From: a virus
Lineage: Duplodnaviria > Heunggongvirae > Uroviricota > Caudoviricetes
Strand: one strand, 5' to 3'
IMG/VR virus record: IMGVR_UViG_2534681998_000017
Span: 1 to 7,019 of that record
DNA: 7,019 nt
The notes under the pieces were generated by a model, which was not told where the DNA came from, searched no databases, and saw nothing but the letters and a program-made list of their open reading frames with translations. Both the position numbers and the translations under genes were made by a program. Shown here piece by piece: positions 1 to 6,697 of this stretch; position 1 is the stretch's first letter, and each line of letters starts with the position of its first letter.

Positions 1-184
1 GGGAAAACGCACGATGTGCTGACCGGAAGTGATGACGGTCGCCACAGCAACACGTCTCTGGCGTGGGGGCTGGCGTGCAGTTTAACCCGACCGAATCCGT
101 GGCCATTGATATTGCTTATGAAGGCTCCGGCAGTGGCGACTGGCGCACTGACGGTTCATCGTGGGTGTCGGCTATAAATTCTGA
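1..184 (+). pseudogene. lom: 3' end of a lom-like gene (Ail/Lom/OmpX-family outer-membrane beta-barrel), reading frame broken twice
   Basis: Three consecutive frames each carry part of one C-terminus: frame 1 (1-68) GKTHDVLTGSDDGRHSNTSLAWG; frame 3 (69-155) AGVQFNPTESVAIDIAYEGSGSGDWRTDG; frame 2 (155-184) FIVGVGYKF then TGA. Joined, this matches my recollection of the lambda Lom C-terminus ending in an aromatic residue, as expected for this barrel family. The frame changes fall at a G-run (65-69) and a T-run (155-156). The gene start lies left of the window. Confidence 0.65.
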
Positions 185-210
185 TTAGCCAGGTAACACA
201 GTGTTATGAC

Positions 211-237
211 AGCCCGCCGGTTCAGGCGGGCTTTTTT
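211..237 (+). terminator. rho-independent terminator downstream of lom
   Basis: GC-rich inverted repeat AGCCCGCC (211-218) / GGCGGGCT (225-232) with a 6-nt loop GGTTCA, followed directly by a T6 run (232-237). Confidence 0.75.
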
Positions 238-248
238 GTGGGGTGAAT

Positions 249-4438: not shown

Positions 4439-4514
4439 AAACAATTTTCTGAGAAGGACATACAACAGCAAGTCGCCAGTCACCTTCATCAGGAAATTGG
4501 CGACATACGTTAAA

Positions 4515-5009
4515 TCAGAGCAGCCCCTTAACTGAGCTGGCCGCGCTATTAAGGGATGATGTCACCTTATCTTTGAAGCCGGACAGCATATCGCTGAACG
4601 ATGAGGATTGCAGGCGCTCCCGCAAATCCTCATCACAGCGTTCAAGAGTCAGTGAAAATTCTATCTTTTTCGCCTTACCGTAGCGATCAAACTCGGAGCG
4701 GGTCGTATTCGTTCCGGTCAGGACATACATGCCGTAAATCTGCCCGACGCCATCAATCAAAGGCCAAGGACGTCCTGTATATGCCTGCGTGGTCAACAAC
4801 GACAGCGACACTTCGCCACCAGTAATCTCAGGATAAAGAACACCAGAAAGAACGATGCGATCATCACCTGCACCGATATACTGCCAGCTTGCTGAACGGT
4901 TAACGCGTTCATTTTTCACATGTCGCCAGCTTTTGTTTTGCTGTAACTGCTGATGCGGCAACGTGCGCAGCTCAAAAACAAACATGCCGTAGATCATCAT
5001 CATGGCCAT
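4515..5009 (-). CDS. phage tail protein, P2 gpU-like
   Basis: ORF MAMMMIYGMFVFELRTLPHQQLQ...WRHVKNER...IVLSGVLYPEITGGEVSL...WPLIDGVGQIYGMYV... resembles, from memory, the P2 gpU tail protein family (the MMMxxGxFVFxLxT start and the GVLYPE, TGG and PLIDG motifs). The true start may be the ATG two codons in, at 5003. It sits directly after the tape-measure gene, as T-U does in P2. Stop TGA at 4515-4517. Confidence 0.75.
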   Translation of the reverse strand: MAMMMIYGMFVFELRTLPHQQLQQNKSWRHVKNERVNRSASWQYIGAGDDRIVLSGVLYPEITGGEVSLSLLTTQAYTGRPWPLIDGVGQIYGMYVLTGTNTTRSEFDRYGKAKKIEFSLTLERCDEDLRERLQSSSFSDMLSGFKDKVTSSLNSAASSVKGLL

Positions 5010-5015
5010 GACTCC

Positions 5016-6697
5016 TCAATCTTTATCGTAAAAACTGCCACGCCTGGCACGGGCGCGCCGTTCCATTTCTGCCCTGACCATTTCGCCGACCAGTTTCGCC
5101 AGTTCGCGGGGATTCTGCGTAACAACGTTATGCAGATGAACATGAATTTCACCGCCAAATCCGGAGGCAACAGGCTCCCGGTTACGGGAAGTTGCAGGAA
5201 CTGATGCCACTGGCGATCGTATGGCCTCCACCACCGGGCGGGAGCTGGCCGCAACAACAGGGACCAGCGCCGGAGGCAGCGGAGCCGGGACCACGGGTGT
5301 GATATTAATTGCGGGGGCAGGCTTACTGACCTGCGCAATCTTCCGCTCCTGCCACTCCCCACGAACAGCAAGTGCGCGGGGCAGGTTCTTAAAGACAATA
5401 TCGCCGGGGCCAATGCGTTTTTTTGTCTCATCAACCAGCTTACCTGTGTTATCAGCAATTTTGCTGAGTCTGCGTAGCGTGCCGGTATTGCTGTCTGTGA
5501 GAGGTTTGTTGTCTTTGGGTTTATCATCTCCGGTGCCATTGCTATTTCCCGCAGACTTCGGCGGATTGATTTTCGCAATGTCTCCCTGAAACAGAGCAAC
5601 CTTGTCCTGAAGAATGGCCGCACGTTGTGCGTCTTCGATTTTCTTGCGCGCCCTTTCCGCTTCATCCGGAAGCACACCGAGTTTTTCAAGTATCCACGCC
5701 AGCGTATCCAGCAACATTTTTGCAGGCGTCAGAACAAGCTGTAACGCACCACCAAGAACGTTACCGAATACCTCGCCAGCACTGGTACATTTATCCAGCG
5801 TTTCCTTGCTGGACTCCATCGGTGACAGCAGCGATTTAAACCAGTTAAACACCTGGCTGAACCGCTTCCGATTACGTCAAAAACAGGGCCAAACCGTTCA
5901 AAGGTGTCGCGCAACGGGGTCAGCCTTTCCATAATCCCGCTGAACACCCCGGCAAAGAAAGCCCTGATAGGATCCCAGTATTTCCAGATAAGAACGGCAG
6001 CTCCGGCAAGCGCAGCCACGATAAGACCAACCGGACTGAACAACGCCCCAATAACGCCTCCCAGTAAAGAAACGGAACCCGTCACCATTCCCCATAGCGC
6101 AGGTAACACCCTGACGACATTCATTGACCGGGTAAGAATGTCAAAACCAAGACGCAGGGTGGCCAGCTTCCCGTAAAGCACCCCAATAACCAGCGACAAC
6201 GAGCCAATCGTTGCAGTCATTGCCAGCAACGCACCGCCTGCTATCAGTAGCTGGCGCGTCAGTACCGGATGGGCCTGCGCCAGCGAGGTGATTTTTTCAA
6301 GCACCCGCGTGAGCCACTGCGTGACAGAACGCAGCGGACCGTCAACCAGATCACTGATGCGAATACGAAGACCTTCCCATGCGCTGTCGAGATTTTTCAG
6401 GTCCCCATCAAGATTATCAGCCATTACTTTTGCGACGCGATCGGCCTCTCCCCTTGCCCCCTGCAATTCTCTGGTCAGTTTTTGCAGCTCTCCTGAACCA
6501 GCCGCCGCAACAAGCGTCTGCAAACCAACGAACGCCTCTTCTCCGGCGATGTCCTTGAAGAAGGAGACCTGGTCCACCTGTCCGTATTTTTGTGTCGCCT
6601 TATAGAGATCAAGCAGCACATCCTCCATCGGGCGCATTTTGCCTCTGGCGTCAGCAACTGACACCCCCAGCTCTTTCAGTGCATCAGCCGCAGCTTT
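5016..6697 (-). pseudogene. phage tail tape-measure protein gene, P2 gpT-like, frameshifted and 5'-truncated
   Basis: Two overlapping minus-strand ORFs in different frames (5729-6718 and 5016-5852) together read as one tape-measure protein. The upstream part has the ...[31 protein letters not shown]... core and a hydrophobic Gly/Ala-rich helical segment; the downstream part has VFNWFKSLLSPMESSKETLDK..., a Pro-rich stretch and a charged C-terminus. The frame change is confined to 5853-5876. The 5' end is missing: at about 6698 the sequence becomes IS-derived. Confidence 0.75.

Follow-up and report, generated by a model that had tools for sequence, protein, structure and literature searches.

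A composite prophage contig of Escherichia coli O157:H7 type whose three frame disruptions probably have two origins

The three frame disruptions in the DNA analysed here probably have two different origins. The break in the tape-measure gene gpT is genuine and inherited, and the two breaks in lom are most likely consensus errors made at the end of a contig. A preliminary description had listed three single-base losses and asked whether they reflect an assembly artefact or real decay. All three are present at the places it gave, and each causes a net shift of −1, but they do not share one signature. The choice between artefact and decay was the right question to ask, with a divided answer: the gpT break is a real, lineage-wide pseudogene and the lom pair points to artefact. 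The outcome is ordinary, a pseudogene that was already known and two errors that probably arose at a contig end, and nothing new emerges here.

The window, by which we mean the whole stretch of 7,019 bp that was analysed, is identical over its full length to AMTN01000077.1, a contig of the draft E. coli O157:H7-type assembly GCA_000304835.2. The draft is fragmented and the window spans one entire short contig, so that the assembly breaks at either end of it. It starts on the plus strand with the 3′ end of lom (1..188), the last ~63 codons of a gene for an Ail/Lom outer-membrane protein, in which the two −1 shifts were located by three-frame translation and repair. This is followed on the same strand by stf (249..3164), an intact side tail fibre gene of 971 aa with Pfam matches to phage_tail_N, Phage_fiber_2 (three times) and Collar, and by the tail fibre assembly gene tfa (3164..3742; 192 aa). 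On the minus strand lie a hexapeptide acetyltransferase gene (3786..4358; 190 aa, weak Hexapep match) with a low GC content of 0.34, for which RefSeq relatives have the annotation serine O-acetyltransferase, and an intact P2 gpU-like tail gene (4515..5003; 162 aa; PF06995, E = 1.5e-38). Next to these is the P2-like tape-measure gene gpT (5016..6708, minus strand; Sakai ECs_2640), of which the C-terminal ~567 codons, or two-thirds, are present with a −1 shift and a truncation at 6708. The remainder (6699..7019, plus strand) is an internal fragment of IS629/IS1203 that begins 177 nt into the first ORF, runs off the contig and is 100% identical to the IS1203 copy in locus L001.

The gpT shift is found at 5859..5861 on the minus strand, where the coding strand reads GGTTC and intact relatives have GGGATC. 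The closest intact relative, from O157:H7 strain PV15-279, is 99.7% identical over 3.5 kb and has its sole indel at 5860. On the plus strand the site reads GCTGATCCCGC in PV15-279 and GCTGAACCGC in the window, which corresponds to the codons AGC GGG ATC AGC in the nearest relatives versus AGC GGT TCA GCC here. If GGGATC is put back, the two ORFs fuse to a 567-aa frame that ends at the natural stop. From IMG/VR and GTDB representative genomes 90 gpT loci were retrieved, 86 of which are intact at the shift site. GGGAT(C/A/T) is present in 80 of these 86, the remaining six have other Ile or Val codons, and TTC, Phe or a run of T was found in none of the 86. Judging from this alignment, the change is GA>T, or the loss of one G plus A>T, a small deletion-plus-substitution and not the contraction of a run. 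An ancestral TTT that lost one T was rejected, as T or Phe occurs at this position in no relative. Programmed ribosomal frameshifting was rejected as well, the 86 relatives having a single uninterrupted frame.

The gpT allele is widespread. A 141-nt query over the shift was 100% identical to a site in each of the 40 complete genomes listed, e.g. those of Sakai, EDL933, EC4115 and TW14359, and 264 records matched at 99% or better, where the intact allele would give 98.6%. Eight independent draft contigs have this allele too, and the 233-aa protein encoded by the downstream gpT fragment is listed in 2,965 assembly blocks that range from 2-kb contigs to whole chromosomes, including 64 with contigs of more than 1 Mb and 109 with contigs of more than 200 kb. 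Positions 3209-6708 of the window are colinear with Sakai prophage Sp13 (tfa, acetyltransferase, gpU and gpT) at 99.8% identity, and the Sakai annotation already lists ECs_2640 as a pseudogene of 'prophage Sp13, P2-like phage', carrying the gpT shift. The gpT frameshift is thus certainly a genuine, inherited and already annotated pseudogene of the O157:H7 lineage. As compared to ECs_2640 (Sp13; CP-933T in EDL933), the gene, its neighbours gpU, acetyltransferase and tfa, and the frameshift allele at nucleotide level are the same. The differences are that gpT of the window is additionally cut at 6708 and fused to the interior of IS629, and that upstream of tfa the window has lambda-like stf and lom where Sakai Sp13 has IS629. 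We suggest that the change from GGGATC to GGTTC became fixed in the common O157:H7 lineage within an already defective P2-like Sp13. Sp13 is described as being without most phage functions, most morphogenetic genes included (PMC2669165). The sole lesion in the window that is clearly real is a known pseudogene of the O157:H7 reference, located in a remnant prophage.

The situation for lom is different in that the gene is repeated, with near-identical copies in 8-11 places per O157 genome. Intact Lom is encoded by one uninterrupted 199-aa ORF, with no conserved two-frame arrangement. In the window a 37-aa ORF at 75-188 matches PF06316 (Ail_Lom). When a base is inserted at each of 64-69 and 152-156, the C-terminus becomes identical to that of Sakai Sp15 Lom and ends in ...GYKF, as is usual for the Lom/Ail family. 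The window gene shares the PF06316 match with the β-barrels of lambda Lom and the Ail family, and its C-terminal strand is complete only after the two bases are added. In the deposited sequence the frame is lost for the last two strands, and from what is known of the family no functional Lom barrel would be expected. The possibility that the two lom shifts compensate each other was rejected, both being −1 and the tail still being out of frame. Two frameshifts at most 90 nt apart in one gene also have the look of a dead gene.

The first lom shift (64..69, plus strand) consists of a run of five G's where intact copies have GGGGGG or GGGGAG. It can be written as TGGGGGGCT to TGGGGGCT, and it is a run contraction if the parent had six G's. 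Among 128 IMG/VR copies, six G's were found in 56, GGGGAG in 49, five G's in nine and seven G's in one, with 12 unreadable. The five-G allele is present on 10 IMG/VR contigs with diverse lom backgrounds, and accounts for 9/116 of the readable IMG/VR lom copies. The site is a length-variable spot, and some of the five-G copies in IMG/VR may be real mutations.

At the second lom shift (152..156, plus strand) the window reads GGTTC, and intact copies have GG[T/C/G]TTC, the wobble base of the Gly codon being the one that is gone. Locus L008 alone has an extra A just upstream. At best this site is a run of three, which is atypical for a classical homopolymer error. The haplotype of the window downstream of it (C172/A178) pairs with GGC in 8/10 copies, and the base lost was therefore probably the lone C rather than one T of a TTT. 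Copies in which the base is present number at least 128, with T in 120 and C in 8, and the deletion allele gave zero exact matches in IMG/VR and the metagenome collection. The two lom deletions together were found in no complete genome, with a top match of 99.6%. The 37-aa ORF with both shifts is known from AMTN01000077.1 alone, in an exact-protein search that misses pseudogenes left untranslated by annotators, so that its uniqueness carries less weight than it may seem to.

When the three sites are compared with relatives, the single signature that the preliminary description had proposed, and with it a single cause, is contradicted. Loss of one base from a short homopolymer describes the first lom site if its parent had six G's, is ambiguous for the second (a TTT or CTT parent) and does not describe GGGATC to GGTTC in gpT. 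Of the two lom shifts, only the first is a clear homopolymer event, from six to five G's.

Both lom shifts are close to the contig end, at distances of 64 and 154 nt, and over positions 1-496 the window is identical to Sakai Sp15-type lom except for the two missing bases; SNPs specific to stf follow at 497-560. Compared with the lambda-like lom-stf-tfa regions of O157-type chromosomes (L003-L006), positions 1-3435 of the window show four differences and are otherwise identical. With L003 as reference, two of these are the missing bases and the other two are SNPs (172 and 178). All fall in nt 1-178, and the next 3,257 nt have none. If differences were spread evenly, the chance of finding all four in the first 178 nt would be (178/3435)^4, or ~7e-6 by our arithmetic. 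The combination of this lom tail haplotype and the 5′ end of the window stf was found in no complete E. coli genome, the best match being 99.5% where 99.85% would be expected. The match to Sp15-type lom and the absence of this combination indicate that the segment with both lom shifts carries the haplotype of another lom copy than the native neighbour of stf.

The contig interior gives a different picture. Between 161 and 6708 there are 287 runs of at least three bases, among which 102 have at least four and 35 at least five. With L003 as reference for 161-3435 and Sakai Sp13 for 3436-6708, none of the 287 runs contains a private indel, so that for this contig there is no general excess of homopolymer indels. 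One private substitution was found, a synonymous SNP at position 6050. The private anomalies are limited to the two contig ends, i.e. the lom segment and the junction of gpT with IS629. At this junction a 10-bp microhomology, GGCGGTGATG (6699..6708), joins gpT to the interior of IS629 (IS1203), as seen in a three-way comparison. Searches of complete genomes, GTDB representatives and IMG/VR gave no other example of this junction. A 69-aa ORF at 6639-6848 is on record solely in AMTN01000077.1, and a 329-aa ORF that spans the junction is not on record. In transposition of IS3-family elements, a true insertion would join at an IS terminus and not within the IS interior.

In view of these observations, the two lom shifts are probably artefacts, as judged by sequence comparison, and it is improbable that they are real private mutations. 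The last ~180 nt of the contig would derive from reads of another lom copy than the true neighbour of this stf, or from a mixture of copies. The missing bases coincide with columns where lom copies differ, namely GGGGGG versus GGGGAG at the first site and GGT, GGC or GGG before TTC at the second; one paralog has runs there (GGGGGG and GGTTTC) that are broken in another (GGGGAG and GGCTTC). In a repeat that is collapsed at a contig end, the consensus could come from few reads and more than one copy, and a conflicting column could be dropped. For other O157 drafts of comparable age, Velvet was used on 100-bp Illumina reads or Celera on combined Illumina and 454 data, in a report that lists only AK.. 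accessions and does not have GCA_000304835.2 among them (PMC3593324). A comparable case is that of short-read O157 drafts in which multicopy prophage repeats give chimeric or collapsed contigs, and the window likewise starts and ends in repeats (lom and IS629). The preliminary description had likened the shifts to homopolymer errors of unpolished long-read or pyrosequencing assemblies. An artefact is indeed favoured for the lom pair, though not specifically one of the unpolished long-read kind.

What long-read errors of that kind look like at the first lom site can be seen in two isogenic derivatives of strain 86-24. Their PacBio assemblies (CP017249 and CP017251) differ by 10 one-base indels in 12 kb with zero substitutions. 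All ten indels are in runs of four or more, and one of them is the lom G6/G5 site itself. As a consequence Lom is called 'frameshifted' in RefSeq for one assembly and intact for the other. The G6/G5 difference in this pair is an assembly error and shows the appearance of an artefact at the first lom site. At least one RefSeq genome labelled 'complete' has a wrong call at the lom G-run. In the 86-24 pair, however, the indels are dispersed at ~0.8 per kb and all lie in runs of at least four, whereas those of the window occur only at the contig end and one of them is without a clear run.

Among other explanations, all three shifts could be real, the window then having a lom copy with two private one-base deletions next to the inherited gpT pseudogene and being in decay throughout. 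The gpT shift is certainly real, the lom G-run is a plausible slippage hot spot in view of the five-G allele in diverse lom backgrounds, and loss of lom would be tolerable, lom of phage lambda being a dispensable moron gene. Nevertheless, both deletions and two paralog-type SNPs would have to be crowded into the first 178 nt ahead of 3,257 nt without differences, in a lom/stf haplotype combination that is present in no complete genome, and with a site-2 allele that was not found in IMG/VR or metagenomes. Moreover, two indels with zero substitutions over 496 nt relative to Sp15-type lom would be an unusual spectrum for natural decay, and we consider decay throughout unlikely. The opposite option is that all three shifts are one kind of artefact, homopolymer under-calls of an error-prone assembly. 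It would explain the net −1 in all three cases and would suit a fragmented draft with a contig of only 7 kb, and homopolymer indels of this type have been demonstrated in some deposited E. coli assemblies. For gpT it is refuted: the identical allele occurs in Sanger-finished Sakai, in EDL933 and in the complete genomes listed, at least 40 in number, and the assembly blocks that have it on record run into the thousands. The gpT change is also not a homopolymer event, and the 287 interior runs show zero private indels, which leaves this option with practically no probability.

It can also be considered that the G-run of lom is a contingency locus at which slipped-strand mispairing toggles Lom, the window having caught an 'off' copy. 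Runs of five, six and seven G's do occur at one site in divergent lom copies, and Lom belongs to the Ail family and is located at the cell surface; phase variation of surface proteins of this type is known in other bacteria. Yet six bases make a short run for slippage to be efficient. In about half of the lom copies the run is interrupted as GGGGAG, which argues against selection for the tract, and in the only case that could be checked, 86-24, the difference is an assembly error that comes with nine further homopolymer indels. The second shift would be left unexplained. We regard a contingency locus as very improbable. Scarcely better are the chances that the run is a real, recurrent slippage hot spot, as the five-G and seven-G copies might suggest, and that in many E. 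coli prophages some of the copies have Lom switched off by it, which would make the first shift a true 'off' allele. A mixed origin, with an inherited gpT break and contig-end errors in lom, thus remains the explanation we prefer.

The structure of the contig as a whole also bears on whether repair of the frames would matter. In finished O157 genomes lom-stf is located in a lambda-like prophage and gpT in the P2-like Sp13. The contig consists of joined pieces of three separate elements, i.e. a lambda-like tail-fibre module, an Sp13 remnant and the interior of IS629, and no finished genome has these three adjacent. At least 80% of the window at a single location was found in none of the complete E. 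coli genomes. The preliminary description had expected an intact lom together with an intact tape measure to mean a more functional element. This does not follow: lom-stf and gpT come from different prophages, so that frame repair gives no more functional phage, and in addition Sp13 is defective and gpT is truncated at 6708.

The transition between the first two pieces lies within tfa, which has a lambda-like allele at its 5′ side and the allele of P2-like Sp13 at its 3′ side, according to mismatch maps against L003 and L001/L017. L003 is matched through 3350 and Sakai Sp13 from 3436, with an 85-bp stretch (3351-3435) in between that is identical in both. At 100% identity the switch region was found in none of 5,426 complete E. 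coli genomes. The hybrid Tfa protein is present in 141 assembly blocks (GCA_025251185.1 is one draft with the hybrid), but every one of these is on a contig shorter than 200 kb, that is, on draft contigs only. This distribution suggests a recurrent draft-assembly misjoin, since the hybrid Tfa is confined to contigs below 200 kb while the gpT fragment reaches contigs above 200 kb. An identical tfa hybrid is carried by L008, which has another strain background and an intact gpT allele, and a real arrangement is therefore possible. The recurrence in 141 blocks sets the tfa hybrid apart from the chimeric O157 draft contigs mentioned above, and would reflect a misjoin that is made systematically or else a real arrangement so far absent from finished genomes.

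Draft assembly across prophage repeats with many copies seems to have produced both the lom shifts and the apparent linkage of lom-stf to the tape measure gene. The main value of this case is one of caution: frameshifts and gene neighbourhoods near the ends of short draft contigs from prophage-rich genomes should not be taken as biology.

Two further features of the window can be mentioned. A placement of the 971-aa stf at the right end of Sakai Sp6 was checked and turned out to be the wrong place; a protein exactly identical to this Stf is listed in 641 assembly blocks. The IS629/IS1203 fragment includes an ALIL frameshift pseudoknot at 6803-6919.

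The frameshift allele of the tape measure gene gpT can be placed in time by comparison with related strains. The ancestral hexamer GGGATC, which contains a GATC (Dam) site, is replaced in the O157 frameshift allele by GGTTC (5859-5861, minus strand) and the Dam site is lost. The intact allele is retained in O157:H7 PV15-279, in LSU61 and in O55:H7 strains, so the lesion arose within, or shortly before, the main O157:H7 radiation. A single substitution in gpT is private to the window: position 6050 carries A where all relatives examined have G, a synonymous change (ATT versus ATC, both Ile).

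The gpT sequence leads directly into an internal part of IS629/IS1203 (6699-7019). The join lies 177 nt into orfA rather than at an inverted repeat, and runs through a 10-bp microhomology, GGCGGTGATG (6699-6708). The junction was found in this contig alone and is therefore either a chimeric read or join, or the product of an illegitimate deletion. The IS629 fragment includes its frameshift stimulator, an ALIL pseudoknot matched by Rfam model RF01497 at 6803-6919 on the plus strand (121 bits, above the gathering score).

The G-run of lom (64-69 in the window; IMG/VR loci L110-L119) is variable in length among divergent lom paralogs: of 116 readable copies, nine have G5 and one has G7, and in about half of all copies the run is interrupted as GGGGAG. 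Over the lambda-like prophage adjoining espJ, the 'complete' PacBio genomes of two isogenic 86-24 derivatives, NZ_CP017249.1 (L016) and NZ_CP017251.1 (L120), differ by 10 single-base homopolymer indels in 12 kb and by no substitutions. The sets of 'frameshifted' tail genes therefore differ between the two annotations, and the RefSeq pseudogene calls for these tail genes are assembly noise.

The tail fibre region is composite. In stf (249-3164) the initial ~1,650 nt, including a long low-complexity Ala/Ser-rich stretch, match lambda-like prophages only, while the sequence from 1653 onward also matches, at 92-95%, the tail fibre gene of a P2-like prophage of O157/55989-type strains. Three tandem Phage_fiber_2 repeats of ~40 aa each (KGIVQLS.ATNS...) mark the boundary, and His-rich HTHS repeats lie close to the C-terminus. 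The adjacent tfa (3164-3742) is a hybrid that switches within 3351-3435 from a lambda-like prophage allele at the 5' side to the P2-like allele of Sp13 at the 3' side. This hybrid is absent from complete E. coli genomes, where the best match is 98.8%. The identical protein was found in 141 draft-assembly blocks, every one on a contig below 200 kb, and occurs even in a strain with an intact gpT (L008). The hybrid is either a recurrent misjoin or a real rearrangement so far unsampled. Its 3' half contains an IS009 Rfam match (RF02111; 3507-3705, plus strand, 191 bits, above the gathering score).

In P2 the sheath-tube-E-T-U and V-W-J-I-H blocks share one reading direction. In contrast, in the P2-like prophages near yecA/uvrC (L001, L002 and L017) the former block is on the strand opposite V-W-J-I-H-tfa. 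By implication, the sheath-tube-E-T-U block of this family was inverted long ago, while gpD of L001 kept its original orientation. Between the convergent tfa and gpU lies a hexapeptide acetyltransferase gene (3786-4358, minus strand) of low GC content (0.34), which has the appearance of foreign cargo and occupies the same position in many P2-like prophages of E. coli. Two likely terminators, each a GC-rich hairpin with a T-run behind it, were spotted by eye: one after lom (209-236, GCCCGCC..GGCGGGCTTTTTT), the other between tfa and its neighbour, the acetyltransferase gene (3748-3777, AGCCATCGA..TCGATGGCT).
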